The notes under the pieces were generated by a model. It ran no database searches and was not told the DNA's origin. It saw nothing but the letters and a program-made list of their open reading frames with translations. 64,000 nt of DNA from the IMG/VR virus record IMGVR_UViG_3300036860_000563, positions 1 through 64,000 of that record; one strand, given 5' to 3'. Below are positions 3,882-35,951 of this stretch, piece by piece (position 1 is the first letter of the stretch; each line of letters begins with the position of its first letter). A program made the translations under genes and the position numbers. The stretch comes from a virus (lineage: Duplodnaviria > Heunggongvirae > Uroviricota > Caudoviricetes).

Positions 3882-3900
3882 TCAGCTCGTGCGAGTGGCA
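3874..3900 (-). other. perfect 9-bp inverted-repeat hairpin (GTGCCACTC / GAGTGGCAC) between dCMP deaminase and polA
   Basis: Seen directly. A second small hairpin, CACAGTG-CCA-CACTGTG, sits at 3833..3849. Confidence 0.3.
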
Positions 3901-4002
3901 CCGAGAACACTGTGGTGATTTGACAACTCTCACATCGACCACGATATCTCGTTAAGATTGACGACAACAGCGGCGACCATGGTGCGTTGCTTCTCGTCGC
4001 AG

Positions 4003-4733: not shown

Positions 4734-4735
4734 GG

Positions 4736-7048: not shown

Positions 7049-7108
7049 AGCTTACCTACCTCTTCTCCTGCTTCTCTAAAGACCGTTCGGCGCTCTCTGA
7101 CGTCGTCA

Positions 7109-11503: not shown

Positions 11504-11555
11504 GGTGTTTTCCTCTCACTCGATCACTACTATCCGTGGGATCAATCTTACCAGG

Positions 11556-11582
11556 AGCGCCCACCAACGGGTGCGTTGGTGG
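11556..11582 (-). terminator. 10-bp perfect hairpin GCCCACCAAC-GGGTGC-GTTGGTGGGC just downstream of the bL12-like gene
   Basis: Seen directly. Confidence 0.4.
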
Positions 11583-11600
11583 GCCGCCTCATGATCTTAT

Positions 11601-13768: not shown

Positions 13769-14443
13769 AATAAGCAGCTCTACTTCCTGCCCGCGTAGAA
13801 GTCGTCACACGAAAACGTGCGACCCAGGGTGATCGGCGCACCGAGCGCGTGAGAACCCATACCTACGCTCTCACACCCGCACACTCGCTAGGTCGCACGT
13901 TCTCACATCGTGCTCCCCGAGGACGTGTCGTTCACGGCTTGTCACAAACCGGAGAAGTAACCGTGAACTTCGCACCGAGGAGATAAGACGAGGACAGTGA
14001 TGATCAACGTTGACCGTCATCGTCCCACTTCAGCTGATGCTCGTATCTCGTTGAGTTGACCGAGTTCAGGGTGACCAACGGTGTGATTTCAGCCAATTTG
14101 AAGTAACCGTCGGTCGGCGCACCGGTCAACCTATGACAACACTAACAGGATCTTGTCGAGCGTGCAAACTCGTACCCACCGAGTGGCCGTCTAACGACAC
14201 TTGATGATCACTTGGTGATCGTCCGGTGGTGTCACTGGGTGACACCCGCACGCCGGAGTGGTTGTAGATTCAAGGCAGTAGACGACGGTGGGCGCCCAGC
14301 CGCCAAGCCTAGGCGCCCACTCACACAACTAGATAAACAGGAGTAGCTGTGTTGGATCCTATCATCACCTACAGACGGGAGTTGCCACAGGTGCTTAAGC
14401 TAATAGTACCACAACCGCGCTACGTCCACGGTTGTGAGCTGCC
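13769..14443. promoter_or_regulatory. 670-bp divergent intergenic region between rsr and primase: several palindromes/hairpins, candidate location of a Y-RNA-like ncRNA
   Basis: No ORF with coding signature. Palindrome GGTGTCAC-TGG-GTGACACC at about 14227..14245. GC hairpin GGTGGGCGCC...GGCGCCCAC at about 14288..14320. Long-range 8-bp pairing GTTGACCG (14063) / CGGTCAAC (14133). Confidence 0.4.
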
Positions 14444-14468
14444 GTGACGACGGAGAAGATCACGGCAG
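14409..14468 (+). promoter_or_regulatory. two adjacent inverted repeats (CACAACCG/CGGTTGTG and GCTGCCGTGA/TCACGGCAGC) bracketing the primase GTG start
   Basis: Seen directly. The second 10-bp stem contains the start codon (14444). Confidence 0.4.
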
Positions 14469-17068
14469 CGCGTGGTTACACCGAGCGTGGTTGGTACGTG
14501 TTCGTACTCGGAACTGGTAAGACACCACTGCCGAACTGCGAGAACTGCCGGCCGGAGATCACCGGGCCTTACCACGATCGCACCAACTGCGCGTGTCTCA
14601 CGTGTCACGCGTTCTACGCGGCGACGCGTGACGTTGACCGACTCACCGAGATGATCGAGCATCACCCGCTCGGCATGCTCGCGGTCCGAACGGGTAACGT
14701 GAGTCGATTGCTCGTCGTGGACGCGGAGGCTACGAAGAGTGAACCAAACGGACCCACCGGTCTGGAGGTTCTCGACGCTTGGGAGTCGTGGACCAACGGT
14801 GTTACGCTGCCAGCGACGCTTCAGCAGCGCACCGGCGGCGGTGGGCTTCACGCGCTCTACCGACTACCGGTAAGTGCGCCCATCATACGCAGTCGGCGCG
14901 TCTTGCCCAGCGTTGACGTCAAGGCCGAGCACGGCTACGTGGCGGTGGGACCGGGCGGTGACGGCCGTCACTGGGTGGATGAGGTTACGCCGGTCGCCGA
15001 CGCACCGTCGGAGCTCATCGCGTGGCTCAGCACCCAGCGGAACGTAGTGTTGCGAGCCCACGGTGGTGAAGACACCACTCCGATCGACTACTCATTTGCC
15101 GTTGCCCGAACGCTGGACGTCATACCGGACGGCTGGCGTGAGGTGTTCACGCGTGACTTATCGTTCGTGCTTCGAAAGTCCGGTGTCTCACGTGAGCGCG
15201 CGACCGAGGTGCTGCGTGAGCGCTGGACGACGTTCGCCCAGCCACCCAACGCGCAGCACTACGTACCGTGGGAGCACGTCGAGTACAAGATCGAGCGTGA
15301 TTGGACCAACTTGTTGCCAGACACACCTAGCGGCGGCATGACCTGGGCGCAGAACATCATTGATGAGGCAGCACGACGACTTACAGCGAGCTCGGCATTG
15401 GTCCCTATAAACAGCTTAGTGAACGACGAAGAGATCGATGAAGAGATCGCGGGCAGTGGTGAGAGTGATGAGCCACCGGCGCTCACAACACCTCCGTTGG
15501 CCGTCGGAGAGCTGGACCCGGACCGGTGGTATGGCACCCATGACGACGGCACGGCCGCTCGGTTGGTGGCCGTCTGGGGTGACTGGTTCCGGGCCATCCC
15601 ACGACAACGTGGCGGCTACACCTGGCTGTACTACGACGGTGTCACCTGGCACCAGGACACACGCGAGCAGATCTGGCAGGCGGTCGCCGAGGTCGTTAGA
15701 CGACTGCCGGACGAGCTGCACGCCTGGGAAGCTCGGTGTGCCGCACTAACCGTGGAGGGCGTGCAAGACTGGCGAACGGCGGTGATCGGAGGCAACGGAC
15801 AGAACGCCGGTGAGTTTCAGGTCGTCGTCGCTCTTAGGAAGTACGGTGCGGCCTGCCGCGAAAACGCGCGAAAAGAGACGGGGGCCCGAGCGTTCGCGCG
15901 CCTGCGCGCGGTGGCAGAGGCGGACCTGGACGCTAACACACGGTACCTGGGGTTACCGGATGGTCGAGCGCTCGACGTGAGAGCTGTTCACGTAGGCTCA
16001 GACCGCTCCACGTGGTTGGTGCCGGCACGACCAGAGATGCTGCTGACCAAGCAACTCGGGTGTGCGTACGTCCCGGTAGACCAGACGTACCCGGGCACCT
16101 GCTACGAGTTCTCCAACTTCCGCCGGTACCTGGAGGGCGTGTTGCCGGACGCGAAGGTTCGAAGCACGCTGCAGGAGTTCGTCGGCTACGCGCTACTCGG
16201 TGAACCAAACGAGAAGATCGTAGTGCTGCTCCACGGCCCCCCGGACTCCGGCAAGACGGTGTTACTGGAGGTCCTAGAGGCACTCTTTGGCGACTACGGT
16301 GGCTGGACGGACGCGCAGGCCCTGGTCGCGGGTAAGGCTAAGTCTGCGCATCAAGAGTGGTTGAACAACATCCGTGGACTGCGACTGGTTTGCACCCCAG
16401 AGACCGCGCGTGGTGCGAAGATCGACGCCGCGTGGATGAAGTCGTACTCTGGTCGAGAGCCACAGACCACGCGAGGCGCGTACGGTGACACATCGGTCAC
16501 GTGGAAGCCGACCGGGATAATCTTCAACGCGTCGAACCACTACGTCGAATATGACGCGGATGACACCGCGGTGGCGGAACGAACCCAAGTTATCGAGTTT
16601 GAGCGGCAGTTTCTACGCGGTAATGATGAGCGTGATGATCAGTTGCCACAAAAGATCCAGGACGGTGAGCTACCCATCGTACTCAACTGGGCGCTGGACG
16701 GACTGCGCCGGCACGGCGAGCGCGGTGGCCTACTCATCGCCGATCGGATAGTCGAGTGGTCGAACCGTTACCGGATCGCGCAGGATACGACGGGACAGTT
16801 CATCGCGGACGCGAGAGAAGAGGGTTTCCTCGTCGAGGATGAGACCGGTGCCGTGTCGTCAGCGTTCGTAACGGTTAAGGTCGTCTACGAGCTGTACCTG
16901 TCGTGGTGCCGTGTGCAGTCGGTCCGGCACCCGCTCGGTCGCAACAGGTTCAACGCACACCTACGAACGGTCTACGGCTGGCGGGACGTTCGAAGTGGTG
17001 TGACACGCTGGCACGGCTGGACGTCACCGGTAACGAGCGCCGCCTCGGTTGTACTACTCCAGTGGTGA
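14444..17068 (+). CDS. bifunctional primase-polymerase (Prim-Pol) / D5-like SF3 helicase
   Basis: N-terminal prim-pol-like region with zinc motif CENC...CACLTC and LHALYRLP. Walker A VVLLHGPPDSGKT. Long C-terminal D5/helicase-like region. Confidence 0.8.
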   Translation: MTTEKITAARGYTERGWYVFVLGTGKTPLPNCENCRPEITGPYHDRTNCACLTCHAFYAATRDVDRLTEMIEHHPLGMLAVRTGNVSRLLVVDAEATKSEPNGPTGLEVLDAWESWTNGVTLPATLQQRTGGGGLHALYRLPVSAPIIRSRRVLPSVDVKAEHGYVAVGPGGDGRHWVDEVTPVADAPSELIAWLSTQRNVVLRAHGGEDTTPIDYSFAVARTLDVIPDGWREVFTRDLSFVLRKSGVSRERATEVLRERWTTFAQPPNAQHYVPWEHVEYKIERDWTNLLPDTPSGGMTWAQNIIDEAARRLTASSALVPINSLVNDEEIDEEIAGSGESDEPPALTTPPLAVGELDPDRWYGTHDDGTAARLVAVWGDWFRAIPRQRGGYTWLYYDGVTWHQDTREQIWQAVAEVVRRLPDELHAWEARCAALTVEGVQDWRTAVIGGNGQNAGEFQVVVALRKYGAACRENARKETGARAFARLRAVAEADLDANTRYLGLPDGRALDVRAVHVGSDRSTWLVPARPEMLLTKQLGCAYVPVDQTYPGTCYEFSNFRRYLEGVLPDAKVRSTLQEFVGYALLGEPNEKIVVLLHGPPDSGKTVLLEVLEALFGDYGGWTDAQALVAGKAKSAHQEWLNNIRGLRLVCTPETARGAKIDAAWMKSYSGREPQTTRGAYGDTSVTWKPTGIIFNASNHYVEYDADDTAVAERTQVIEFERQFLRGNDERDDQLPQKIQDGELPIVLNWALDGLRRHGERGGLLIADRIVEWSNRYRIAQDTTGQFIADAREEGFLVEDETGAVSSAFVTVKVVYELYLSWCRVQSVRHPLGRNRFNAHLRTVYGWRDVRSGVTRWHGWTSPVTSAASVVLLQW

Positions 17069-17087
17069 GTACAAACTGGTATAAATC

Positions 17088-17440
17088 CTGGCAATGATCT
17101 TGGCAGTTTCACCGTTGTTGATCTATATTGAAAGTGCCAAGGTCTCATATGGGATCATATCGTCTTGGCACTTTCACCTAGGATCTGGCAGTTTCAACGG
17201 CCCGAAAACTCCCAAACTGCCAAGAAAGTGCCAAGGCATCCTACATCATATTGATCTTCATTTAACCAGCTAGATCCTTTATACCAACTAAACTTAATCT
17301 TATTTTAAGTTATGATTGGCAGTTTGGCAGTTTCGCTAGGGTTGTTAGAGGTATAAGGAGGAGGAAATTGGGGATATTTATACCGATTTGTTCCCCACCC
17401 TTCCCTGGTGGTACTAAACTACTCTCAGAACTGCCAAAAT
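17088..17440. repeat. AT-rich iteron array: at least 9 copies of TTGGCA(G/C)TTTC in both orientations; putative replication origin
   Basis: Copies at about 17100, 17130 (rc), 17165, 17185, 17214 (rc), 17224 (rc), 17316, 17325, 17428 (rc). Local GC is far below the window average. Sits immediately downstream of the primase/helicase gene. Confidence 0.6.
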
Positions 17441-17452
17441 GAATCATCTTAA

Positions 17453-17866
17453 TTGATATCAAGAGTTAATGATAACGAAAGTGGTGTTGTACCGGCACCT
17501 ATCACCGGCCTGGACGGCATCCGGTGGGCACTCATGCCGACGAAGTACGCGGAGGCGACACTACGGTCATTCGGGCAGCTAGATCACGTAAATGAGTTCA
17601 TCGAGTGGCTCCGGGACCGCGACGTGCTCCAGGTCGTGGACATGTCCCAGATGCCGGTGTCACACTGCACCAAGGCGACGGAGCTGCACGAGTGGTACGC
17701 GCTCTGGGTTAAGAAGCACGGTGATAAGCAGGACAGGGCCGAGGCGCTCAACCTACGAGACTTCTGTGCGGCGCTACGCGACCGCGGCTGGGTGTCGCGG
17801 CAGAGCGCGGGGACGCGCTGGGTAGGAACTCGGCTCACGCAGGTCCCGGGAATCTGGTCACTTTAA
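17453..17866 (+). CDS. hypothetical protein
   Basis: TTG-start ORF (alternative ATG at 17534). Confidence 0.4.
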   Translation: MISRVNDNESGVVPAPITGLDGIRWALMPTKYAEATLRSFGQLDHVNEFIEWLRDRDVLQVVDMSQMPVSHCTKATELHEWYALWVKKHGDKQDRAEALNLRDFCAALRDRGWVSRQSAGTRWVGTRLTQVPGIWSL

Positions 17867-18314
17867 GTCACCCCACTGACCAGCGACGAGTAATGATTCA
17901 GTAATACTGGTTGGGTAAACTGGGTGCCAAATGAGAGTACAGATCACTGACATCACTATGTGATGGACTACTACTAGCTTAGTTTGTACTTAGTTTGTAC
18001 CTTATTGTAAGTAGAGAGTATAGGGGGATTTGGGGAGAGTTACCAGCTAGATGACTTGCCCGTGAACGATTGTAACCTTGTACCCACTAGTCGTGAAAGC
18101 TCGCGCGAGCGTCTGCGCGACGTGCGCGTCTGAGGAGGCTGGGGAAACTTTTCGGAGCCAGGTGCTTACAGGGTACAAAGTGGAGTTAATGACACAGAAT
18201 CACGTAGTTGAGGACCTCACGTCGCCCGGGCCTCTCAACACGGCGAGCACGACAGCCTAACGCACGAGTGCGTGAACTTTGTGGAATTAGCACACATGTG
18301 AAGAACTGTCGCCC

Positions 18315-19280
18315 GTGCCCGGTGCACGTAGTATGATTGTGTTTGTGCCACAGGTTACGCGGAGACACGTCGAGGAGGGTGTCGTCGGGGCGGAGCGAGC
18401 CGCGACGCTGAGCGACGCGCAGCGACGCGGCCTGCGCCACGCGACGAACCGCTGGGCGACCGGTCCCCGTGAACTGGCGCTCGGGGCCGTGCTCTCACGG
18501 CTGGGCACACCGCGAAAGCTGCGAGGCATGGGCCTAGGTCACGGTGGTCTCGTCCGCTGGGTCACGGACCCGGACGGAGCTCGCTGGCCCGCGTTCACGG
18601 TCGCCGAGCTGATGGCGAACGGGATCAAGGGACCGCGTTGTCCGGAGCGACGCCGCCGGGCCCGGGGAACACCGTGGTGTCACAACCTGGCGGGTGCGCG
18701 AACGGATCACCTGGGAGTGGGGCGTTGTCGTTCGCACAGTGGCAACCGGTCGAGCATGAGGGCGGAAGGTGCCTGGGTCATGTCACACGCGTTCTCTCAA
18801 GAATTCAACTGCTCTCCCTGGGAGGGACTTCTCTGGGCGGTCCGCGTCGCCGCCGGGAAGCTCGCGTACTGCGAGCGGGTGATCGGCACGGCGACGTCGG
18901 ACCTCCAGCTGGAGGGCCGGCTCGCTCGTAACGAGGCGGGTGTCCAGGTGGATCCCGACACGGGCGAGCCGCTGGGCGTCGGTGGCCTGCGTGACCTGTC
19001 GTTCTGGGTCGCGAAGTCCGAGCTGTGGCACGAGCGACTCGCGCGAGTGAGCAAGCTCGCGGTGGACGCGGGTGTGGCCGAGCGCGTCGTCGAGGCGCAG
19101 ATCCTGCAGGTGCAGCTCATGACGCGACCCGTCGAGGCGGCACTCGCCGCGCTGGATCTTACGGTCGAGCAGGAGAGTGTCGCGCGTCACGCGCTTCGAA
19201 CGGAGCTGCTGGCGATCGAGGCCGAGCGCGTGGGAGTCATCGTCGGGTCGTCGCCGGACGAGTGGAGTGAGACGTCGTGA
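18315..19280 (+). CDS. hypothetical protein with a Cys/His cluster
   Basis: High GC3 across the ORF. PRCPERRRRARGTPWCHNLAGARTDHLGVGRCRSH. Preceded by a 450-bp low-GC non-coding stretch containing the TTAGTTTGTAC x2 direct repeat. Confidence 0.4.
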   Translation: MPGARSMIVFVPQVTRRHVEEGVVGAERAATLSDAQRRGLRHATNRWATGPRELALGAVLSRLGTPRKLRGMGLGHGGLVRWVTDPDGARWPAFTVAELMANGIKGPRCPERRRRARGTPWCHNLAGARTDHLGVGRCRSHSGNRSSMRAEGAWVMSHAFSQEFNCSPWEGLLWAVRVAAGKLAYCERVIGTATSDLQLEGRLARNEAGVQVDPDTGEPLGVGGLRDLSFWVAKSELWHERLARVSKLAVDAGVAERVVEAQILQVQLMTRPVEAALAALDLTVEQESVARHALRTELLAIEAERVGVIVGSSPDEWSETS

Positions 19281-20598: not shown

Positions 20599-20916
20599 GT
20601 GTTGCAAACCGTCGGTGACGACTCGTCAACCCACCGACTGGGTGAGAGGGAGGATGATGTGAGGGCACACGGTCGCGTGTCGACGTACACCAACGGGGGT
20701 TGTCGCTGCCTCGCCTGCACCGAAGCGAACACCGCTCGCGTTCGACGAGCCCAGCTTAAGCGCGCCGAGCGGCTCATCGTGAATCCTCAACTCGTTGTTC
20801 ACGGCCGTGCGTCGACGTACACCAACTGGGGTTGTCGTTGTAGACCGTGCACCGATGCGAACACCGCTTCGAGCCTAGTTTATAAGCGTAGTCGACGAGC
20901 TGCGGCCGGTGCGTGA
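20599..20916 (+). CDS. small protein with tandemly duplicated HGR(V/A)STYTN(G/W)GCRCxxCT(E/D)ANTA motif (putative zinc/DNA-binding)
   Basis: Two roughly 22-aa copies are visible in the translation. Confidence 0.45.
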   Translation: MLQTVGDDSSTHRLGEREDDVRAHGRVSTYTNGGCRCLACTEANTARVRRAQLKRAERLIVNPQLVVHGRASTYTNWGCRCRPCTDANTASSLVYKRSRRAAAGA

Positions 20917-20935
20917 CGAGAACGATGGGAGTAAC

Positions 20936-21391
20936 GTGAGGTACGTCGAGGCGCCTCATCCACTGTACGACGTGCGCGAGCGAGCGCTGTTTCTCGCCGG
21001 TGGCATCACCAACTGTGTTGACTGGCAGAGTGACGTGGTGACGTGGCTGCGCGACCAGCGCATCACAGTGCTGAACCCACGGCGGCCGAACTTCGACGTC
21101 GGGAACCGGGCCGCGGCGTACGCCCAGGTTGCGTGGGAGCATCGTCACCTGCGACTCGCCGACGTCATCCTGTTCTGGTTCCCGGCGTCGGGCGACGTCG
21201 CGCAGCCGATCGCGCTCTACGAGCTCGGCTACTGGGTTAACTCCAGTAAGCAACTCGCGGTGGGAGCGCACCCGGACTACGTGCGACGATACGACGTAGA
21301 GCTGCAAGTTAAGCTCACGCGGCCGGCGCAGGTGATTCACGGTGACCTCATGAACACGGTGGCGGACGCCGTCGAGCTGCTAAAGTGGTGA
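20936..21391 (+). CDS. nucleoside 2-deoxyribosyltransferase / DNPH1(Rcl)-like enzyme
   Basis: ALFLAGGITNCVDWQ and IALYELGYWVNSSKQLAV fit the family's YLAG and E.G.A...K motifs. GGGAG RBS before GTG 20936 (the ORF opens at 20909). Confidence 0.55.
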   Translation: MRYVEAPHPLYDVRERALFLAGGITNCVDWQSDVVTWLRDQRITVLNPRRPNFDVGNRAAAYAQVAWEHRHLRLADVILFWFPASGDVAQPIALYELGYWVNSSKQLAVGAHPDYVRRYDVELQVKLTRPAQVIHGDLMNTVADAVELLKW

Positions 21392-23952: not shown

Positions 23953-24609
23953 GTGGGACAACCTACCGCGCTGCCGTCGGTCGCGCAGGACACGTCACTC
24001 GTGGGCGTCAACGAGACCGCCGAGAACGCGGCGGTCCTGCGCGTGGGACGAGTGACTGGGTACACGGGTGGTGTCATCACCGTTGCGATCTCGGGTTCGG
24101 ACGTGCTCGCCAACGCGGCGTACCTGACCCGGTACAACCCAACGGTAGGTGATCTCGTCGTGGTGTTGAGGTCGGGAGCGTCGTGGGTGGTGCTGGACAG
24201 CTTTGCCACAACGCCCGGGCGGTTCGTGCCCGTGTCAGGCACCGTAGCGACGTACGAGAGCACGGCGTCGGTGTCGTTCACCAACCTCACCACCGTCGGC
24301 CCAACGCTGTCCGACGTGGTGATCGGATCGTCGGGTCGTCTCCTACTGTTCATCTCTGCACTCATCAACATCATCGGTGCGAGTGATGGGCAGATGGGGG
24401 TGGACATCACCGGTGCCACCGTGTTGCCGGCGACGTTCCAGCGGGTGTTCGGGTTCGCCGGTCCGGCGGGATCGGGAGTCGAGGGCACGCGACTGCACCT
24501 GCTCGAGGGGCTCAACCCCGGCCCCACGACGTTCGTCGCAAAGTACGCCTCACTGTCGGGAGTCAGCGTCGACTTCGCACGACGTAACCTCACCGCCGTC
24601 GTCTTGTGA
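23953..24609 (+). CDS. Gly/Thr/Val-rich hypothetical protein
   Basis: AGGAGG RBS before GTG 23953. The ORF opens at 23887 with an RRALL stretch that is probably not translated. Confidence 0.4.
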   Translation: MGQPTALPSVAQDTSLVGVNETAENAAVLRVGRVTGYTGGVITVAISGSDVLANAAYLTRYNPTVGDLVVVLRSGASWVVLDSFATTPGRFVPVSGTVATYESTASVSFTNLTTVGPTLSDVVIGSSGRLLLFISALINIIGASDGQMGVDITGATVLPATFQRVFGFAGPAGSGVEGTRLHLLEGLNPGPTTFVAKYASLSGVSVDFARRNLTAVVL

Positions 24610-24732
24610 GAGAAAAAGTGAGTGATGATCGTCGTATGGCCAACATAAAGTATGATATAGTTATGATGTAGTAACGCTAAGACGTAAGTGATCTAAGCGA
24701 GAGGTGAGAGTGATGCGACGAGAAGGTGCGTC

Positions 24733-25860
24733 ATGGTGATGACGACACTCGCTGACGTTCTCGATCCGCACGCGCTTCGGCGCGCGCTGACGAGTGGACA
24801 CGTCCGCGCCCAAGCTCACCCCGAGCTACCCTACACGATCTTGAACTACACCGAGCGAGCGGCGTATGACGTCGCCTGGAATGACGTCACGTTGTCGTGT
24901 CGTGGTCTGATCTACGATCACAGCACGGACGTGGTGCTCGCGCGACCGTTTCGGAAGTTCTTCAACTACGGACAGCTCTTCAGCCACGGACAGTCTAGCG
25001 GACCGATCCTCGACCTCGACTCCGCGGCGGTGGTCACGGACAAGGCGGACGGTAGCCTGGGCATCTTATACCCAACACCGGACGACTGGGCGATCGCGAC
25101 CCGTGGTTCGTTCACGAGCGACCAGGCGGTGCACGCCACCGAGGTCCTGCGGTCACGGTACGCCACGTTCGAACCGCCGCCCGGGCTGACCGTCCTGGTG
25201 GAGATCGTGTACCCGGGCAACCGGATCGTGCTGAACTACGGCGACCTGGACGACCTGATCCTGCTCGGCGCGGTGGACATCGCCACAGGTCGCTCATTCG
25301 ATCCTGGCGTCTTGATGGGTTGGCCCGGACCGGTAACCGAGGTCTTCTCCTACGCCACCCTGGCACAAGCGCTGGTGGCTCCGCCACGACCGAACGCGGA
25401 GGGGCTCGTGGTGCACCTATCCCACAGTGATAACCGGGTGAAGTTTAAGCAGGAGGACTACGTCGCGCTACACCGCATCGTCACCGGGCTCAACGCTCGC
25501 ACGGTGTGGCGGCACGTCGTCAGTGGTGAGCCGCTCGGTGAACTAATCACTCCGCTGCCCGACGAGTTTCACCCGTGGGTGCGCGCTGTCACCGCCGAGC
25601 TCACCGCTCGCGTCGAGCGACAGCGCGCCGAGCTGGTGCGGGCGTACGACGACGTGCTGTGGGAGCTGTCGCAGCTGACGAAGACGGCAGAGGACTGGAC
25701 GCGTAAGGACTTCGCGCTCCACGTAGCGTCCCACCCTCACCGCTGGGCGATGTTTATGCTACTAGATCGGCGTGACATCTGCCCAACACTGTGGCAGCGC
25801 GCTCAACCCGAGGCGTCGTGGACGCCGTCCGGACGCACCTACTCGGAGGACACAGCGTGA
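24733..25860 (+). CDS. ATP-dependent RNA ligase
   Basis: Nucleotidyltransferase motif I VVTDKADGSLGIL (KxDG), motif IV EGLVVH, motif V RVKFKQ. GAGAAGG RBS. Confidence 0.65.
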   Translation: MVMTTLADVLDPHALRRALTSGHVRAQAHPELPYTILNYTERAAYDVAWNDVTLSCRGLIYDHSTDVVLARPFRKFFNYGQLFSHGQSSGPILDLDSAAVVTDKADGSLGILYPTPDDWAIATRGSFTSDQAVHATEVLRSRYATFEPPPGLTVLVEIVYPGNRIVLNYGDLDDLILLGAVDIATGRSFDPGVLMGWPGPVTEVFSYATLAQALVAPPRPNAEGLVVHLSHSDNRVKFKQEDYVALHRIVTGLNARTVWRHVVSGEPLGELITPLPDEFHPWVRAVTAELTARVERQRAELVRAYDDVLWELSQLTKTAEDWTRKDFALHVASHPHRWAMFMLLDRRDICPTLWQRAQPEASWTPSGRTYSEDTA

Positions 25861-25918
25861 ACATGTTCTTCTTCATCGGCTTTGTGGTGGGACTACCGGT
25901 CTTCTACGTGATCGCTCG

Positions 25919-27055
25919 ATGGATCATGAGACGATGATGGACCTGTCGGGTGCGAGTCTTCAGGTGCTGCTCACCGTACACACGAACCTGCGCAACGGCC
26001 TGAGTCGCGTCGCTGAGACGCTGGACGACGGCACGTTTCACGTCGTTGGAGCGCACGGTGAGGCGTCACCGGCCCAGTTTGGTCAGCTCATTCTCATCCT
26101 ACTCAGAGAGATCAACGCCGAGCTCTATCGGAGAACGGAAGCCCTCATGCCGACGCTGACGATCACCCGCGGCCTGCCCGCCTGCGGCAAGACGACCTGG
26201 GCTCGGGCCTGGGTGGCGCGTGACCCGACCCACCGGGCCAGGGTGAACCGGGACGACCTGCGCGCCATGGTCCACGACGGGGTGTGGCTCGGGCAGGACA
26301 CCGAGAAGCAGATCGTCGCCGGCCGCGACGCCACGATCCGGGCACTGCTACGGCGCGGGGTCGACGTGGTGTGCGACGACACCAACCTGCCGCAGCGAAC
26401 CGCCCGGGACCTGCGCCGCCTCGCCGTTGTGGCCGGTGCCGAGTTCCTGGTGGTTGACTTGAGCGACGTGCCGGTCGGCGAGTGCGTGCGCCGCGACGCC
26501 GTCCGTGACCGGCCGGTCGGCGAGTCGGTGATCCGGGACATGTGGAACCGGCACGTGCGTGGCCGGCCGCGTCCGCTGCCGCTCGCCGACGAGCCGCAGG
26601 ACGGGGGCGACCAGCCGGTGCCCTACGTTCCGCCGCCGGGCGCACCCAGCGCGGTGCTCGTCGACGTCGACGGCACAGTGGCGCTGATGGCCGCCCGGTC
26701 GCCGTACGACGAGACGCGCGTGCGCGAGGATCGTCCCAACCTGCCGGTGATCGCTGTGGTGAACGCACTCTACGACGCCGGCCACGCCGTGGTGTTCTGC
26801 TCGGGCCGCACCGAGGGCTGCCGCGTCGAGACCGAACGCTGGCTCTGTGAGCACGTGATGGCGCCGGTCACCGCTCTTCACATGCGCGCCGTTGGCGACA
26901 CTCGCAGAGACGCGATCGTGAAGCTGGAGCTGTTCGACCGCCACATCCGCGACGCGTACCGCGTGGTGTGCGTCCTCGACGACCGCGACCAGGTCGTAGA
27001 GATGTGGCGTGCGCTGGGCCTGACGGCGCTGCAGGTGGCACCCGGCGACTTCTAG
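25919..27055 (+). CDS. polynucleotide kinase-phosphatase (P-loop kinase + DxDxT phosphatase)
   Basis: TRGLPACGKTTWA (P-loop); VLVDVDGTVA (DxDGT); VCVLDDRDQVV (HAD motif IV). The catalytic core probably starts at ATG 26147. 25919..26146 is in the same frame with no stop, so the N-terminal limit is uncertain. Confidence 0.7.
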   Translation: MDHETMMDLSGASLQVLLTVHTNLRNGLSRVAETLDDGTFHVVGAHGEASPAQFGQLILILLREINAELYRRTEALMPTLTITRGLPACGKTTWARAWVARDPTHRARVNRDDLRAMVHDGVWLGQDTEKQIVAGRDATIRALLRRGVDVVCDDTNLPQRTARDLRRLAVVAGAEFLVVDLSDVPVGECVRRDAVRDRPVGESVIRDMWNRHVRGRPRPLPLADEPQDGGDQPVPYVPPPGAPSAVLVDVDGTVALMAARSPYDETRVREDRPNLPVIAVVNALYDAGHAVVFCSGRTEGCRVETERWLCEHVMAPVTALHMRAVGDTRRDAIVKLELFDRHIRDAYRVVCVLDDRDQVVEMWRALGLTALQVAPGDF

Positions 27056-27062
27056 GAGACGT

Positions 27063-27434
<372 letters not shown>

Positions 27435-27634
27435 GTGAAGAACGTGAGTGACGAGATGAAGGTGCTCGTGGGGTTGGTGCTGATCGTCGTAGCGGCCGTG
27501 AGCCTGTGGTGGGTGTTCACACACGTGGCGGCCGGACCGGCGCTTCCACCCACCCCGCGCGTGACGTCATCGCAGTGATGACGTCGATAACGTTAATGAT
27601 GATCTTGTTTCTCTACGAGCAATTCACCTCTTCT

Positions 27635-27643
27635 TGGTAGAAT
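27635..27643 (+). promoter_or_regulatory. extended -10-like promoter element TGGTAGAAT
   Basis: TGn + TAGAAT, about 60 nt upstream of the NADAR gene. Shares GGTAGAATC with the element at 33218. Followed by a (GAGAAGAG)4 repeat. Confidence 0.3.
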
Positions 27644-27700
27644 CGTAGCAGAGCGAGTGAAGAGGAGAAGAGGAGAAGAGGAGAAGAGGTGAGTGATGTG

Positions 27701-28162
27701 ATGATCATCGATCGGTTCACCGGTGAGTACCGGCTCCTCAGCAACTTTAGCCCACACTCGGTCACACTGAGTGATGACGGGATCGAGTACCCGACGCTGG
27801 AACACGCCTTCCAGGCCGTGAGAACGCACGACGCCGGTGAGCGTGCGTTGATCCGCGAGACGCTGTCTCCCACGCGGGCTAGAAAACTAGGGCAGTTCGT
27901 GGAGCTACGGCCTAGGTGGGACGAGACCCGGTACGCCGTCATGTTGGAGCTCGTGCGCCTGAAGTTCATCACCCACCCGGACGCGCTCACGGGGCTGCTC
28001 GCCACCGGGGACGCGACGCTCATCGCGGGTAACGACTGGCACGACAACGTCTGGGGTAACTGCACGTGCCTTCGGCGTGTGTGCGCCGCACCCGGGAGCA
28101 ACGTGCTCGGCCGGACGCTGATGAAGGTGCGTGGTGAACTCCGTGCCGCGACGAGAGTGTGA
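27701..28162 (+). CDS. NADAR-family (YbiA-like / DUF1768) ADP-ribose-processing enzyme
   Basis: FTGEYRLLSNFSP (F.G.Y..LSNF), YPTLEHAFQA, ...DNVWGNC fit the NADAR signature. Confidence 0.7.
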   Translation: MIIDRFTGEYRLLSNFSPHSVTLSDDGIEYPTLEHAFQAVRTHDAGERALIRETLSPTRARKLGQFVELRPRWDETRYAVMLELVRLKFITHPDALTGLLATGDATLIAGNDWHDNVWGNCTCLRRVCAAPGSNVLGRTLMKVRGELRAATRV

Positions 28163-28424
28163 CGGAAGTAGTGGCTCGCGTTGAGTGGAACGTGTTCGTG
28201 CAAGGTGTGAAGTTAGGGGGTCTTGACGTTGACGATTGAGCGTGTCATCCTGCTGGTTGTGTTCGGCGCGCTGGGCGTGGGGCTCGTGCTCTACGTCCTC
28301 AGCGTTGGACGTGGACGTGGGCGTCGTAGGTGACGTCACACACGCCACAGCTCATATCACCTCACCTGATATGATAAGAGTAAGAGACAGCTAAGAAAAC
28401 TCATCGACAGGAGATGATGATCGA

Positions 28425-28715
28425 GTGCTCAAGAACTTGGGTGCGTGGAAGCGCGTGTCGTTCGTACTCGTAGTTCTCGCACTGGCCGTCACAATCGGTG
28501 GCTGCGGTAAGATGCGTGAGAAGGTCAAGGACGCACCGATGAATGACCAGCTGGACAACACCGGTGTCGCGACGCGAGTCGTGATGCCGGACGGCTACTC
28601 GAACGTGGCCACTAAGTGCGATCACGGTAACCGGATCTACGTGGCGTTTCACGGAGACTCGCCCTACACCGCGATCGCGATCGTACCCGGTGACCCAACT
28701 TGTCCTAAGAACTAG
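28425..28715 (+). CDS. small secreted lipoprotein
   Basis: Signal peptide KRVSFVLVVLALAVTIGGC with lipobox-like IGG|C. AGGAG RBS, GTG start. Preceded by a TGATATGAT -10-like element at about 28367. Confidence 0.45.
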   Translation: MLKNLGAWKRVSFVLVVLALAVTIGGCGKMREKVKDAPMNDQLDNTGVATRVVMPDGYSNVATKCDHGNRIYVAFHGDSPYTAIAIVPGDPTCPKN

Positions 28716-28741
28716 GTGAGAGAAGGAGAGGCACGAGAGTC

Positions 28742-29746
28742 GTGGACGGAACGTTCATCGGCACGATCGTGTTCGGGGTGCTCACGCTCGTGGGAGTCGT
28801 CGTGTGGCTTGCCACGCGGGTGACCAACCCACGACCACACTCTGATCAGTATGACACACTCTCCGGTCACCGCCGAGCGGTAGCAGCGTGGGAGCTGCGC
28901 GGTACCGCGCGACGAGCCGCCCGCTGGACGGTCATCGCGCTCGGTGGGTGCACGGTGTTACTCTTCACGCTGTCGTGCTTCACGCGCGTCGGTACCAACC
29001 AGATCGGGATCATGAACTCGTTCGGGCGACCCGTGGACGCGCTGTCCAACGGCGTGCACCCGAAGTCGCCGTGGGAGACGAAGGTCGAGTTTGACGCGTC
29101 GCGGCAGTTCCTGCGCTTCCAGGAGCGCGGCAACGGCAAGGAGACGCACAGCGAGAAGGTGTTCCCGGCCTTCAAGGTTCGCATCGCGAACAACGCGGGC
29201 GCGGAGGTCTGGGGCGTCGTGACGTGGCAGATGCGCGCCGACACCCCGGAGGAGAAGTTGCAGGCGGTGCAGCTGTACCGGCAGTACCGCACGTTCGAGC
29301 GACTGAACGACAACTACGTCGCACAGTCGACGCAGGCCGTGCTGCTCGCGACGTTCGCGGACGTCAACCCGCTGGTGCCGGACAAGAACCCATCGTTCGC
29401 GGAGCTGTCCGTGACGACGGAGCGGCACCTGCGCGAGCTCGTCGGCGCGCAGCTGGACGTCATCTCGGTGCAGCTCACGTTCGTGGACTACGATGATAAG
29501 ACGGACGATGCGATTAAGTCTGTGCAGGCGCAGATCGCGAAGACCGCCGAGGAGACCCAGCGACAGAAGACCAACGAGGCGGCGGCTCGCGCCGCAGCCG
29601 CGCTGGGTAGCACCGCGCAGGGACCACCGCCCAGCGAGGCGGTGCTCATCAACAAGTGTCTGGACATCGCACAGGCACTGGGTAAGGAACCCGGCTACTG
29701 CTTCATCCGAGGTGCCACTCCGATCATCGGGCGCTCACCGCAGTAG
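28742..29746 (+). CDS. SPFH/band-7 (stomatin/prohibitin-like) membrane protein
   Basis: Two N-terminal TM segments, then a band-7-like core (IMNSFGRPVDAL...HPKSPWETKVEFD...FKVRIANNAGAEVWGVVTWQMR), then a coiled-coil/Ala-rich tail. Confidence 0.5.
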   Translation: MDGTFIGTIVFGVLTLVGVVVWLATRVTNPRPHSDQYDTLSGHRRAVAAWELRGTARRAARWTVIALGGCTVLLFTLSCFTRVGTNQIGIMNSFGRPVDALSNGVHPKSPWETKVEFDASRQFLRFQERGNGKETHSEKVFPAFKVRIANNAGAEVWGVVTWQMRADTPEEKLQAVQLYRQYRTFERLNDNYVAQSTQAVLLATFADVNPLVPDKNPSFAELSVTTERHLRELVGAQLDVISVQLTFVDYDDKTDDAIKSVQAQIAKTAEETQRQKTNEAAARAAAALGSTAQGPPPSEAVLINKCLDIAQALGKEPGYCFIRGATPIIGRSPQ

Positions 29747-29774
29747 GGTTCACTCGCGCTACGTTGACCGATGA

Positions 29775-30491
29775 GTGACGAGGAGAGTGACGCCCGTGAA
29801 CACGGTGCTGCTGAATGGGATCGTCGGGTCGACCGCGTACAACTTAGCGGACTCTGACTCGGACGTGGACAGACTCGGGATCTTCGCCGTTGACACGGTG
29901 GAGCTGCACGGGTTGAGGCGTCCGGTTGAGAGCATCGTTAGGACGCATCCGGATCGCACGCTTCACGAGGTGGGTAAGTGGTGTCGACTCGCACTTAACG
30001 GTAACCCCACCGTGATGGAGCTCGTGTGGTTACCGCGTGACCTGTACGAGGAGAGCACCGAGCTCGGCGAGGAACTCATCGCGTTACGTGGCGAGTTCTT
30101 GAGTGCGAGTCGCGTGCGAGACGCGTACCTGGGCTACGCCACCCAGCAGTTCTACAAGCTTCAGGCGCGCGGTGATGGGTCGTTCTCTGCCGACACGCGT
30201 AAGCGTATGGCGAAGCACGCACGACACCTACTTCGGCTGCTCGAGCAGGGCGTCGAGCTGCACCGGACCGGCACGTTGACGATCCGGCTCTCACCAGAAG
30301 TCGCCGCCGCGGTGCGCGAGTTCGGCGACCGGGTCGCGACCGGTGACGTGGAGGAAGCGCGTGTAAAGCTCTCACTGTTCGAGGAGGTGTTCCGCACGGT
30401 GTCGACGCCACTGCCCGCTGAGCCCAACGTCGAGCGCGTGGAGCGCTGGCTGCGTGAGGTGCGACGACAACACTACGCTTCTGAGAAGTAA
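29775..30491 (+). CDS. minimal pol-beta-superfamily nucleotidyltransferase
   Basis: LLNGIVGSTAYNLADSDSDVDRLGIF is the GS-x9-DxD NTase signature. Alternative GTG starts at 29787 and 29796. Confidence 0.55.
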   Translation: MTRRVTPVNTVLLNGIVGSTAYNLADSDSDVDRLGIFAVDTVELHGLRRPVESIVRTHPDRTLHEVGKWCRLALNGNPTVMELVWLPRDLYEESTELGEELIALRGEFLSASRVRDAYLGYATQQFYKLQARGDGSFSADTRKRMAKHARHLLRLLEQGVELHRTGTLTIRLSPEVAAAVREFGDRVATGDVEEARVKLSLFEEVFRTVSTPLPAEPNVERVERWLREVRRQHYASEK

Positions 30492-30558
30492 GTTCACGCA
30501 CGAACGAACCCGGTGAGGAAGTACCGTGTTGCAGAAGATACCACGTCGAAGCTCGAGT

Positions 30559-30951
30559 ATGCGACCGTTGATGATCGTCATGTTGATCATCGCACCGCTG
30601 GTCATGACGGTGATGTGGTTCGGTCCTAGGATCAACGGTCGGGTTCCGTTCACCGGTGGGCCCGGCCGGATCTTAGTGTCGGTGGTGTTCGCTCCGACGA
30701 CTCGTCAGCTGTCCGTTCACGTTGAAGAGTTCGTCGACGACGTCAAGGTAGTTGATGATAAGACGAAAGAGTCCCCCTGGGCGATGGCCCAGGTCATCTA
30801 CCCGGGTCAAGTTGTGCGACTGGAGGCGACGCAGGTTGAGTCGGGCGTCCTCACGTGCCGGATCGCTCACTGGAACGGCACGGTGATAGACACCCAGACA
30901 CGAACCGCGTACGGAACGGTCGCCTGCTCGACGTCGAGGAAAAAGACGTGA
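30559..30951 (+). CDS. membrane-anchored/secreted hypothetical protein
   Basis: Hydrophobic N-terminus MRPLMIVMLIIAPLVMTVMWF. Confidence 0.4.
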   Translation: MRPLMIVMLIIAPLVMTVMWFGPRINGRVPFTGGPGRILVSVVFAPTTRQLSVHVEEFVDDVKVVDDKTKESPWAMAQVIYPGQVVRLEATQVESGVLTCRIAHWNGTVIDTQTRTAYGTVACSTSRKKT

Positions 30952-31550
30952 CGGTGTGGTTCACCGCCGACCTGCACCTTGGGCACGCGCGCATCATTGA
31001 GCTGTGTAACCGGCCGTTCGCGTCCGTCGCTGAGATGAACGAGACGATCATCGAGCGCTGGAACGCCGTCGTAGCGCGCACGGACATGGTGTTCGTGCTC
31101 GGTGATGTGGCACTCGGCCGGCTCTCAGAGACGCTACCGCTGGTCAGACGACTGCACGGCCGGAAGTGCCTGGTACCGGGTAACCACGACCGGTGCTGGT
31201 CTGGTCACGACCGGGTGAGCCCGGCTGACCTGCGACGCTACACCGACGTCGGCTTCGTGGTGCTGCCCGGGCACACGTTTCACCGTGGTCTGGACGCCCA
31301 GCTGTGTCACTTCCCGGCGACGGTGGACGTCACATCCAGCGCTCACGGTGATGATCGTTTCGCGGCGTTTAGACCCGTGATACGCCCCGGAAAGTGGCTC
31401 GTGCACGGTCACGTGCACAACCGCTGGCGGGTGAGTGATGATCAGGTGAACGTCGGCGTGGATGTGTGGGACTTCACACCCGTCTCGATCGAGACGCTAC
31501 GTGTCATACGCTCTGGGATGATCGCTTGGGAAGACGCGAGTGAGTGCTGA
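30948..31550 (+). CDS. calcineurin-like metallophosphoesterase
   Basis: WFTADLHLGH (DxH), VLGDVALG (GD), PGNHD (GNHD/E), VHGHVH. GTGA overlap. GAGGA RBS. Confidence 0.65.
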   Translation: MTVWFTADLHLGHARIIELCNRPFASVAEMNETIIERWNAVVARTDMVFVLGDVALGRLSETLPLVRRLHGRKCLVPGNHDRCWSGHDRVSPADLRRYTDVGFVVLPGHTFHRGLDAQLCHFPATVDVTSSAHGDDRFAAFRPVIRPGKWLVHGHVHNRWRVSDDQVNVGVDVWDFTPVSIETLRVIRSGMIAWEDASEC

Positions 31551-33112: not shown

Positions 33113-33219
33113 ATCGCTGCTGTCGGCGCTGTTCGGCGGTAAGTCTAAGAGGTAGGACGTACTCACCGTGTAGATGTGACGTGGTGCGCTGTGATACGTT
33201 GTGATACGGTGTGGTGCGG

Positions 33220-33231: not shown

Positions 33232-34740
33232 ATGATGGGGTTGGGTGAGAGCGCGTCACTCGAGCGCACGCTCGCGGACGCGCTCGACCCGCCCGAACTA
33301 CGCTGGCGACGCGACCCGGTGGCGTGGGCCATCGAGCGCGCGCGGGTGGAGTTGTGGTCCAAGCAGCGTGAGATTCTCGAGTCCGTCCGGGACAACGCCA
33401 ACACGGCGGTGCGCTCGGCTCACTCCTCGGGGAAGAGCTGGCTCGCGTCCCTACTCACGTGCTGGTGGGTGGACGTTCACCCGGCGGGTCAGGCGCGCGT
33501 CATCACGACGGCACCGACGTCGAAGCAGGTCGACGCCGTGCTCTGGTACGAGATCAACCGGATGCACGCGCGGCTTGGATTACGTGGTCGTACGAACATG
33601 TCGGAGTGGTTTCTCGGTGACCGGATGCTCGTCGCGCTGGGTCGTAAGCCGCCGGACCACGTGGAGGCCGCGTTTCAGGGTTTACACGCGCGGTTCTTGC
33701 TTGCGATCCTAGACGAGGCATATGGCATCCCAAAGCACCTGTGGGACGAGGCCTCGACGTTGGCCAGCAACGAACACGGACGGGTGCTCGCGATCGGTAA
33801 CCCGGACGGACCCGGTGAGTTTGAAGAGAACTGCAAGGCCGGCTCCGGCTGGAACGTCATTCACATTGGGTACGCGGACACACCTAACTTCACGGGTGAG
33901 CCGGTGTCACGTGAGCTCGGTGAGTTGCTCGTGTCGCGCCGTTGGGTGGACGAGCGCCGGCACAAGTGGGGCGCTCACTCCGCGCTCTTTCAATCGAAGG
34001 TGGAGGGTAACTTTCCCAGCGGTGGTGACCCGTACGCCGTCATGCAGCATGACTGGGTGACGCGGTGCCGGCACCTGGAGCTACCCAGTGGTGAGCCGGT
34101 CGAGGCGGGCATCGACGTCGCGGCCGGTGGTGATCGAACCGTCATCCGGGAGCGACGCGGTGCGCGCGCCGGTCGTGAGGAATCGTTCCAGGACAACGAC
34201 CCGATGCGCACGGTGGGTCGACTCGTCGAAAAGATCGTTGAGTGGGAGATCCAGCGTGTGAAGATCGACGTGACGGGTCTCGGCTGGGGCATCTACGGCC
34301 GAGTCCGTGAACTGTCGTCCCGACACAACCCAGCGGGAGAGACGACACACTCGGCGGAGGTGATCGACGTCAACTTCGGCGCCGGACCACCGCCCGGCTA
34401 CGCGAAGAAGTTCCTCAACATGCGCGCCTACCTGTGGTGGGAGGTCGGGCGTGAGCTGTCGCGCCTCGGTCTCTGGGACCTCACCGAGGTGGATGACGAC
34501 ACGGTTCACGAGCTCACAACGCCGCGCTATCAGATCCTCGACTCGTACGGAAAGATTAAGATTGAGTCGAAGGACCACGTCATCAAGCGGCTCGGTCTCT
34601 CACCGGACCGCGCGGAGGCGCTCATCCTGGCGTTCTACGACGCTCGGACGACGGCCCGGGTCATCGGGTGGGCACACATGGCGAGCGCCGACCTGCTCCG
34701 GGACACGTCGCCCAGCGACAACGTGGCGGCGTACGAGTGA
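33232..34740 (+). CDS. terminase large subunit
   Basis: Walker A AVRSAHSSGKSW. Walker B-like LLAILDEAYGIP. C-terminal nuclease-like region with acidic residues (GIDVAAGGDRTV, KIDVTGLGWG). Confidence 0.8.
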   Translation: MMGLGESASLERTLADALDPPELRWRRDPVAWAIERARVELWSKQREILESVRDNANTAVRSAHSSGKSWLASLLTCWWVDVHPAGQARVITTAPTSKQVDAVLWYEINRMHARLGLRGRTNMSEWFLGDRMLVALGRKPPDHVEAAFQGLHARFLLAILDEAYGIPKHLWDEASTLASNEHGRVLAIGNPDGPGEFEENCKAGSGWNVIHIGYADTPNFTGEPVSRELGELLVSRRWVDERRHKWGAHSALFQSKVEGNFPSGGDPYAVMQHDWVTRCRHLELPSGEPVEAGIDVAAGGDRTVIRERRGARAGREESFQDNDPMRTVGRLVEKIVEWEIQRVKIDVTGLGWGIYGRVRELSSRHNPAGETTHSAEVIDVNFGAGPPPGYAKKFLNMRAYLWWEVGRELSRLGLWDLTEVDDDTVHELTTPRYQILDSYGKIKIESKDHVIKRLGLSPDRAEALILAFYDARTTARVIGWAHMASADLLRDTSPSDNVAAYE

Positions 34741-35737: not shown

Positions 35738-35807
35738 GGGATGATAGCTTAACGGGAAAAGCCCGGGTCGCTCCCGGCGTACGCTGGTTCGAGGCCAGCT
35801 CATCCCA
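35738..35807 (+). tRNA. tRNA-like element with perfect acceptor, D- and T-arms but a non-canonical anticodon arm (CGC at the anticodon position)
   Basis: Manual fold: acceptor GGGATGA/TCATCCC + A73; D-stem GCTT/AAGC; T-arm GCTGG-TTCGAGG-CCAGC; variable loop CGTAC. Anticodon arm is either CCGGG-TCGCT-CCCGG (5-nt loop) or a 4-bp stem with loop GTCGCTC. Confidence 0.45.
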
Positions 35808-35951
35808 CGAGAGACACTCGTCCTAGGAGTGAGCGTCACTCGAGGATGTGAGTGGCGGAGGAAGTGGAGCCGGTTGGACCGTCCGGCGCGCGACACACCG
35901 GTACGATCGCTTGGTCAGCGAGGGACTACCGGTACCCGATCTCACATCCGA

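Follow-up and report, generated by a model that had tools for sequence, protein, structure and literature searches.

The region analysed here, positions 24733–31550 of a 64,000-nt stretch of viral DNA (positions 1–64,000 of the IMG/VR record IMGVR_UViG_3300036860_000563; hereafter the window), belongs to an actinophage genome segment with 63% GC and carries a group of predicted RNA-repair genes among genes of other kinds (Table 1). All of its open reading frames (ORFs) lie on the + strand, are tightly packed and display a coding-type GC1/GC2/GC3 pattern. A nucleotide search of this island against 50,697 deposited phage records resulted in no matches, and the large terminase (33232–34740) is at most 42% identical to the terminases of known phages. 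By sequence, the phage is a new actinophage lineage. Each of the domains that the original prediction had named in the region was recovered by profile searches or, for the lipoprotein, by sequence features, and the four enzymes have kept their active-site motifs.

Table 1. Features of the island in the window, followed by the gene order of related loci
Feature or locus	Position in the window	Strand	Basis, description or gene order
Putative promoter in an AT-rich stretch upstream of the ligase gene, −10-like TATGATATAGT	24597..24716	+	GC down to 0.33
Rnl1-type ATP-dependent RNA ligase, 375 aa	24733..25860	+	Profiles and motifs
Possible 24-aa hydrophobic peptide ORF (MFFFIGFVVGLPVFYVIARWIMRR)	25863..25937	+	Read from sequence; its stop overlaps the start of X (ATGA)
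X, helical-hairpin domain of 70 aa, joined in frame to Pnkp at its N-terminus	25934..26146	+	Homologues, model, contexts
Pnkp proper, P-loop 5′-kinase and HAD 3′-phosphatase	26147..27055	+	Profiles and motifs
Orphan poly-Asp protein	27063..27434	+	Basic N-terminal part of 96 aa with Cys and His, then 24 Asp
47-aa single-pass membrane protein ORF	27435..27578	+	Coding GC pattern, hydrophobic segment
Putative internal promoter in an AT-rich gap before NADAR, extended −10-like TGGTAGAAT	27564..27654	+	
NADAR ADP-ribosyl-glycohydrolase, 157 aa	27689..28162	+	Profile and motifs
Possible 36-aa membrane peptide ORF	28223..28333	+	Read from sequence
Putative promoter of the lipoprotein-SPFH-RlaP-membrane protein-metallophosphoesterase unit in an AT-rich gap, −10-like TGATATGAT	28340..28424	+	
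Predicted lipoprotein, 96 aa	28425..28715	+	Signal peptide and lipobox IGGC only
SPFH/Band-7 membrane protein, 334 aa	28742..29746	+	Profile
RlaP nucleotidyltransferase (RNA-ligase-associating Pol-beta), 238 aa	29775..30491	+	Profiles and motifs
Orphan membrane-anchored protein, 141 aa	30526..30951	+	One N-terminal hydrophobic segment; no family match
Calcineurin-like metallophosphoesterase (MPE), about 200 aa	30948..31550	+	PHROGs, PDB, motifs
L031			Rnl-RlaP-X-Pnkp, contiguous
L032			Rnl-RlaP-X-(1.5 kb)-Pnkp-NADAR, NADAR directly after Pnkp
L033			Rnl-RlaP-X-(1.1 kb)-Pnkp
L007 (closest relative, large terminase 62% identical)			Rnl-Pnkp-RlaP-X, contiguous
L020			Pnkp-RlaP-X
L024			RlaP-X-Pnkp
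L021			NADAR ... HAD_PNKP-RlaP-X-Metallophos
L019			Ro ... RlaP-X (Ro 4 kb upstream)
L022			MPE (42% identical to that of the window) directly before X
L025			Pnkp remnant-X
L036–L039			RlaP, X–Pnkp fusion (59% identical to that of the window), 32-tRNA array, Ro

The first gene of the island encodes an RNA ligase that matched PF09511 with 37.4 bits (cut-off 28.3) and phrog_562 with E=1e-62. It also aligned to the structure of T4 Rnl1 (PDB 2c5u) with E=6e-10, up to residue 266. The ligase motifs I, III, IV and V were recognized as K104-ADG, which contains the adenylylation residue Lys104, VE157IV, E223-G and K237-F-K239, and their key residues pair with K99, E159, E227 and K240/K242 of the T4 enzyme. 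Since the PF09511 threshold is reached and the cut-off of the T4 RnlA equivalog model TIGR02308 is missed (60.4 vs 242 bits), we consider the protein a member of the Rnl1 family and not a T4 RnlA equivalog. It is 41–50% identical to ligases encoded beside RlaP/Pnkp in the related loci L007, L011, L012 and L031–L033.

The next enzyme, Pnkp, matched PF25109 (HAD_PNKP) over the whole model (positions 1–143) with 183 bits, PF13671 (AAA_33) with 60 bits and phrog_505 with E=2e-88. The P-loop GLPACGKTT is encoded at 26171–26197 and the phosphatase motif DVDGT at 26663–26677. Homologues of about 300 aa begin at a Met equivalent to position 26147, and relatives with up to 65% identity are encoded in genomes of Micromonospora, Nonomuraea and Streptosporangium. 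A longer ORF of 427 aa, starting at 25772, was rejected as the Pnkp gene because it overlaps the ligase gene by 89 nt and because homologues start at 26147 or, in the case of fusions, at 25934. The corrected gene starts at 25934 and encodes a protein of 373 aa in which a 70-aa domain, here termed X, continues in frame into Pnkp. The ligase and Pnkp had been proposed to be a T4-type pair for healing and sealing of tRNA ends, and this is borne out by the family matches and motifs. The call of Pnkp itself also stands; the domain fused to it had been missed.

X is a real, conserved and confidently folded family without annotation. A HMMER search of 1.84 billion representative proteins resulted in 36 relatives with E<1e-3, nearly all of which are stand-alone proteins of 46–120 aa, with the consensus TETLL..R.NLL.GL..VA....GTF..VG.KG.APP.QSGQLTL.LL..V..EL..R. 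AlphaFold2 modelled X as a two-helix hairpin (helices 9–32 and 46–69) with a pLDDT (predicted local distance difference test) of 95. No match to X was found in Pfam, NCBIfam or PHROGs, and Foldseek against the PDB returned generic helical hairpins only, the best with E=2.3 and none significant. Likewise, neither tBLASTn against phage records nor a word-indexed protein search gave a hit, and no relative of the window X was found in IMG/VR. Two texts on RlaP-dependent repair (PMC7824862; PMC12776372) do not mention such a domain. The fusion of X to Pnkp is real and recurrent: it is present in P0037, a protein from another assembly, with 100% identity, and in P0044, encoded directly after RlaP, with 59% identity. 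We also considered that X might be a split-off C-terminal piece of longer RlaPs, and rejected this origin because the X profile shows no similarity to T4 NrdC.11 and seven other RlaPs.

Comparison with related contigs showed that X is almost always located directly after RlaP and next to Pnkp. To count the first of these contacts we used the nine loci that hold sequence upstream of X, with L036–L039 taken as one, and X directly follows RlaP in 9/9 of them. The conserved core across the related contigs consists of Rnl1, RlaP, X and Pnkp. As this set recurs contiguously in unrelated contigs, its clustering in the island is not a matter of chance. In L007, a 75-aa ORF after RlaP is homologous to residues 55–121 of the long window ORF, which correspond to X, and the core module is present there without NADAR, SPFH, lipoprotein or metallophosphoesterase genes. 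Relative to the canonical order, the window is rearranged: X was kept with Pnkp, and RlaP is found 3.6 kb downstream.

The nucleotidyltransferase at this downstream position matched the RlaP family PF10127 with 69.3 bits (cut-off 23) and phrog_388 with E=4e-31. It carries the Pol-beta signature GS...DxD as G18-S and D26-S-D-S-D-V-D, and aligned pairwise to T4 NrdC.11 with E=1e-5. An exact-protein look-up returned no record. Burroughs and Aravind reportedly named RlaP (PF10127) after its operonic linkage to RNA ligases. In a comparison of jumbo phages, RlaP was the most prevalent nucleotide-restoring enzyme, with a distribution mirroring that of RNA ligases, and its predicted role was to put back, ahead of ligation, the nucleotides that RloC and similar toxins take away (PMC7824862). 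A preprint of December 2025 reports that two Pseudomonas RlaPs add 1–2 nucleoside monophosphates (NMPs) to the 3′-OH of damaged RNA, that the product is directly compatible with 5′-phosphate ligases and that RlaP helps to restore the aminoacylation of over-damaged tRNA; it also points out that RlaP by itself does not choose the correct nucleotide for addition, and it places T4 NrdC.11 in this family (PMC12776372).

All RlaP relatives that we examined are found in RNA-repair neighbourhoods. RlaP directly adjoins Rnl, Pnkp or HAD_PNKP in L007, L020, L021, L031–L033 and L036, and an RNA ligase in Gordonia phage Daredevil. It occurs together with a PnuC-like gene and a polynucleotide kinase in Streptomyces phage GiJojo, and with HAD_PNKP and Thg1 in L004 and L005, two viral contigs with 70% GC. 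In the window, 3.9 kb separate it from Rnl1. The original prediction held that this nucleotidyltransferase could rebuild 3′ ends, which is plausible in view of the biochemistry of the RlaP family to which its sequence assigns it. It also placed the enzyme outside the described Rnl-Pnkp system, and this is wrong: as an RlaP, a member of a ligase-linked family that is present in T4 too, it belongs to the described repair syntax. By analogy, the expected activity would be filling of the gap at the break, not addition of CCA or poly(A).

We consider it probable that the region is a phage cassette for the repair of tRNA/RNA breaks, of the described type that combines a ligase with end-healing and nucleotide-restoring enzymes, and that unrelated accessory genes are interleaved with it. 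Going by the characterised families, the working cycle would begin with a host ribotoxin that cuts a tRNA and leaves a 2′,3′-cyclic or 3′-phosphate end and a 5′-OH end. The HAD domain of Pnkp would then take off the 3′ phosphate and its P-loop kinase domain would phosphorylate the 5′ end. Where a nucleotide has also been lost, as with a RloC-type toxin, RlaP would add 1–2 NMPs to the new 3′-OH. Finally, Rnl1, which requires 3′-OH and 5′-phosphate ends, would seal the break. Because of its conserved adjacency to RlaP and Pnkp and its fusion to Pnkp, X may serve as an adaptor that links RlaP with Pnkp, or keeps the two on the RNA, and in this way couples healing to nucleotide addition. The neighbouring genes appear separable from the cassette because L007 does without them, because of the anti-DarT1 role of NADARs and because SPFH and metallophosphoesterase genes have other contexts elsewhere.

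Several observations weigh against this interpretation. The case for X as an adaptor consists of its genomic neighbours, a single fusion and a fold of a generic kind, and coupling through X is less obvious in the window because RlaP, which adjoins X in the relatives, lies apart from the X–Pnkp fusion. NADAR genes are present in only about 0.8% of phage records, yet they recur near the module: among eight loci with enough flanking sequence, three (the window, L021 and L032) have NADAR within 6 kb of the X module. Metallophosphoesterase genes adjoin X in L022 (see Table 1 for the identity) and in L021, where the enzyme belongs to a different family. Band-7 genes adjoin RtcB in Bongo and lie within 3.5 kb of RNA ligases in Grayson and Sham. 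As to the putative promoters that would divide the island, a scan for consensus sigma-70 promoters and terminators gave nothing above shuffled controls. The recurrence of NADAR near the module is suggestive of a link, and it fits a counter-defence island equally well.

A bolder proposal, which we put forward with considerable doubt, is that X is a dedicated subunit of an actinophage RNA-repair complex and couples RlaP to Pnkp, and possibly to tRNA. In its widest version, the complex would also have NADAR and the metallophosphoesterase as optional modules that recur and extend repair to ADP-ribosylated or cyclic-phosphate RNA ends. If X is such a subunit, the Pnkp fusion found here is a natural 'Rosetta stone' for X-mediated interaction. 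X is also a candidate for supplying the substrate selection of RlaP or its coupling to other repair steps.

It seems unlikely that the whole 6.8 kb constitutes one repair system for RNA ends and ADP-ribose, in which the metallophosphoesterase opens 2′,3′-cyclic phosphates, NADAR de-ADP-ribosylates damaged RNA, and SPFH and the lipoprotein form a scaffold at the membrane. The genes are indeed co-directional and tightly spaced, and the succession of SPFH, RlaP, the membrane protein and the metallophosphoesterase, with a 29-nt gap, a 35-nt gap and a 4-nt overlap, is operon-like, as is the 8-nt gap between Pnkp and the poly-Asp gene; the same packing is also in keeping with the repair cassette favoured above. 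However, AT-rich promoter-like gaps precede the NADAR and lipoprotein genes, the closest relative L007 has the core and none of the accessory genes, and neither ARAGORN nor Rfam, at gathering thresholds and at E<=1, detected a tRNA-like or any other known RNA within the island. Furthermore, large phages tend to gather their accessory genes and tRNAs in a single arm, so that co-localisation is inflated. The evidence on the individual accessory genes is divided in the same way.

The NADAR protein matched PF08719 with 83.8 bits (cut-off 35.1) and phrog_1017 with E=2e-35, and contains LSNF, EHAFQ and DNVWG. PADLOC gave a weak match to NADAR as its only result. Across its full length, the protein shares 40% identity with the NADARs of T5-like phages, which would correspond to the tested AdfN(Bas32) group. 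A common repair system is favoured by the order Pnkp-NADAR in L032, by the 4 kb between NADAR and HAD_PNKP in L021, and by the fact that NADARs also reverse guanosine ADP-ribosylation on RNA. On the other hand, phage NADARs (AdfN) remove ADP-ribose that DarT1 has placed on guanine in phage DNA (PMC11825919). By analogy, the window NADAR is most likely a separate AdfN-like enzyme directed against DarT1-type guanine ADP-ribosylation; a role on ADP-ribosylated RNA is possible. Outside the island, the same phage that encodes this ADP-ribosylation-reversing enzyme also encodes, at 44544–50042 (+), a protein of 1832 aa that has a MuF-like head-morphogenesis domain (PF04233) at its N-terminus and an ADP-ribosyltransferase (ART) toxin domain (PF03496) at its C-terminus, and that is presumably a polyvalent protein delivered with the virion.

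The metallophosphoesterase gene more likely starts with the GTG at 30948, where a GTGA overlaps the stop of the upstream membrane-protein gene, than at 30855. Its product matched phrog_547 with E=3e-46 and PDB 1xm7 (Aquifex aq_1665) with E=4e-6, and displays the metal-binding motifs DLHLGH, GDV, GNHD and GHVH; no Pfam model was matched, even at E<=10. Besides the MPE-X and RlaP-X-Metallophos arrangements of L022 and L021, a link to repair is favoured by homologues 3–4 kb from RtcB in cluster M phages, by a homologue following RtcB-Band7-MazG in Bongo and another 3.4 kb from RtcB in MrMagoo. Calcineurin-like phosphatases are also listed as occasional components of phage RNA repair (PMC7824862). 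Conversely, in the Streptomyces BE phages, where the best matches to both proteins are found, the metallophosphoesterase gene is about 32 kb away from Rnl. The family is present in about 1,500 phage records of many families. These include 40-kb phages, in which the gene has replication and recombination genes around it; in one of them, Snek, it lies between NrdH and a Holliday-junction resolvase, among replication genes. The enzyme may be a loosely associated accessory phosphoesterase and a possible end-processing enzyme.

For the SPFH protein, we found matches to PF01145 with 50.7 bits (cut-off 23.6) and to phrog_200 with E=4e-26, and hydrophobic segments at residues 1–27 and about 63–83. Homologues are present in 343 actinophage records, and no relatives were found in IMG/VR. 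We sampled the neighbourhood of SPFH genes in ten actinophage lineages. In four of them the gene is within 4 kb of an RNA ligase, namely in the window, in Bongo, in Grayson, where Band-7 lies inside a tRNA array at 3.5 kb from Rnl/RtcB, and in Sham, at 3.3 kb from Rnl and Pnk. No annotated RNA-repair gene stands beside it in the examined flanks of McProf, Sephiroth, MontyDev, Forza and the Bxz1-like JayJay, and in BE2 phages such as StarPlatinum and Sushi23 about 13 kb separate it from Rnl. The commonest neighbour is a MazG-like pyrophosphohydrolase, more often than RNA-repair genes. In the otherwise unrelated Bongo (L014), Forza (L015), Sephiroth (L017) and McProf (L010), a gene for a MazG-like NTP pyrophosphohydrolase directly follows Band-7. 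SPFH/Band-7 proteins were reportedly proposed as a scaffold for RNA repair by Burroughs and Aravind in 2016.

The lipoprotein matched no family in Pfam, NCBIfam or PHROGs. The 141-aa membrane protein and the tiny membrane ORFs are orphans as well, and neither they nor the lipoprotein gave a homologue. The poly-Asp gene begins 8 nt after Pnkp, and its run of 24 Asp is encoded by (GAT)n. No family match was obtained for its product, and no homologue was detected in phage records or in a set of 5.8 billion proteins. The repair chemistry probably does not involve SPFH and its lipoprotein, the poly-Asp protein or any of the small membrane proteins.

It is very improbable that the cassette serves the RNA metabolism of the phage itself, for example by acting with Ro/TROVE to mature phage tRNAs or control their quality, or that it has a non-RNA role like the tail-fibre attachment of T4 gp63. 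In favour of this, the phage encodes Ro/TROVE and three tRNAs, relatives place RlaP and the X–Pnkp fusion beside a 32-tRNA array and Ro, L019 has Ro upstream of RlaP-X, and phrog_562 carries the dual annotation of T4 gp63. Against it, the tRNAs of bacteria and phages lack protein-spliced introns, for which Rnl and Pnkp would be required. The T4 pair has been shown to act only in the reversal of ribotoxin damage, and the same role is proposed for RlaP. In addition, the surroundings of rsr gave no element resembling a Y RNA, and the ligase gene stands among non-structural genes, not tail genes.

Other RNA-related genes had been predicted for this phage beyond the island, and most of them were found. 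The rsr/TROVE gene is present at 12113–13768 (−) and encodes a VWA-like C-terminal part. Its Ro protein is 66% identical to that of L019 and 57% identical to that of L036, both of which are encoded near RlaP-X. For a Y-RNA or tRNA-like partner near rsr, a search of 11500–18400 with Rfam at E<=1, which included the flanking gap 13769–14443, gave none. The predicted tRNAs were found as well, three in the window. The tRNA-Ala(cgc) at 35738–35808 (+) was called by ARAGORN; it is below the Rfam tRNA gathering score and may be degenerate or atypical. For comparison, 32 tRNA genes lie directly downstream of the X–Pnkp fusion in L036 (11992–15593 of that contig), with Ro 9 kb away. The proposed virion-borne 2H phosphoesterase fits a protein of 1146 aa encoded at 50039–53479 (+), directly downstream of the MuF-ART gene, which matched PF13563 with 27.9 bits, just above the cut-off. 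In contrast, the predicted bL12 was not found among the 30 ORFs scanned with Pfam, a non-exhaustive scan.

The AT-rich stretches with −10-like elements are hints of three transcription units in the island. Elements of the form TATGAT or TAGAAT, often with an upstream TG, occur at 24640–24665, 27632–27643 and 28378–28390, and again ahead of the terminase gene at 33205–33215. These may represent a class of phage promoters not captured by the consensus scan. Elsewhere in the window, an unusually AT-rich kilobase with GC down to 0.25 (17049–18057) follows closely on the primase-polymerase gene and might be an origin of replication or have a regulatory role. A family A DNA polymerase, a dCMP deaminase, a thymidylate synthase and a nucleoside 2-deoxyribosyltransferase-like protein are encoded at 1971–5572 (−) and 20909–21391 (+), a set for nucleotide metabolism and replication that is ordinary for a large lytic actinophage. 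In L007, a gene for an SsgA-like sporulation/cell-division protein (6828–7232 of that contig) lies just upstream of the RNA ligase, which points to a sporulating actinomycete as host of this phage group.

Several parts of the island can be compared with known systems. Actinophage Band-7-like proteins, such as Bongo gp116, McProf gp16 and Bxz1 gp29, are 28–34% identical to the window SPFH and have the N-terminal membrane anchor, SPFH domain and C-terminal coiled coil in common with it. The window gene is followed by RlaP, whereas in other actinophages MazG usually follows, and it is preceded by a small lipoprotein gene without a homologue in the Band-7 actinophages. In the Pnkp/Hen1 system, the kinase, metallophosphoesterase and ligase domains of Clostridium thermocellum Pnkp cooperate on broken RNA ends, which provides a precedent for a metallophosphoesterase that acts as 2′,3′-cyclic phosphodiesterase and phosphatase in repair. 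The window differs from this system in that Pnkp already provides a 3′ phosphatase with its HAD domain. Its metallophosphoesterase is a small protein in its own right and belongs to another family, one that is widespread in phages, and the Hen1 methyltransferase is absent. The window NADAR is a stand-alone protein of about 155 aa like AdfN (PMC11825919), and its location 0.6 kb from the RNA-repair module, which recurs in L032 and, nearby, in L021, is a placement not reported for AdfN.

The described RlaP operons (PMC7824862; PMC12776372) likewise link RlaP to an RNA ligase and end-healing enzymes, and the predicted role is the same, i.e. nucleotides lost at the break would be restored before a 5′-phosphate ligase acts. 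The RlaPs with known biochemistry are from Pseudomonas and from RtcB-RtcA operons, whereas the window RlaP is of an actinophage clade of about 230 aa and accompanies Rnl1, Pnkp and X. In T4, where Rnl1 (gp63) and Pnkp (PseT) act against PrrC, the ligase is of the same family with motifs I, III, IV and V, and Pnkp has the same bifunctional kinase-HAD architecture. T4 also possesses an RlaP (NrdC.11) and a NADAR (gp30.3, an AdfN; PMC11825919), and therefore all four enzyme families are common to T4 and the window. The four genes are scattered in T4 and located within 5.8 kb in the window. The window ligase is far below the T4 RnlA equivalog cut-off (60 vs 242 bits) and its C-terminal domain is not alignable, and the window Pnkp has the extra N-terminal X, with no detected similarity to T4 NrdC.11. 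From the comparative data we obtain a shortlist of optional companions (NADAR, metallophosphoesterase and Band-7), whose membership in the cassette is not assumed. It has already been described that phages combine RlaP with a ligase and an end-healing enzyme against tRNA-cutting defences; the island confirms this and adds an actinophage example from a lineage without a nucleotide-level relative among deposited phage genomes. New here, in comparison with the described systems, are the rearranged gene order and an unnamed conserved component, X, fused to Pnkp.

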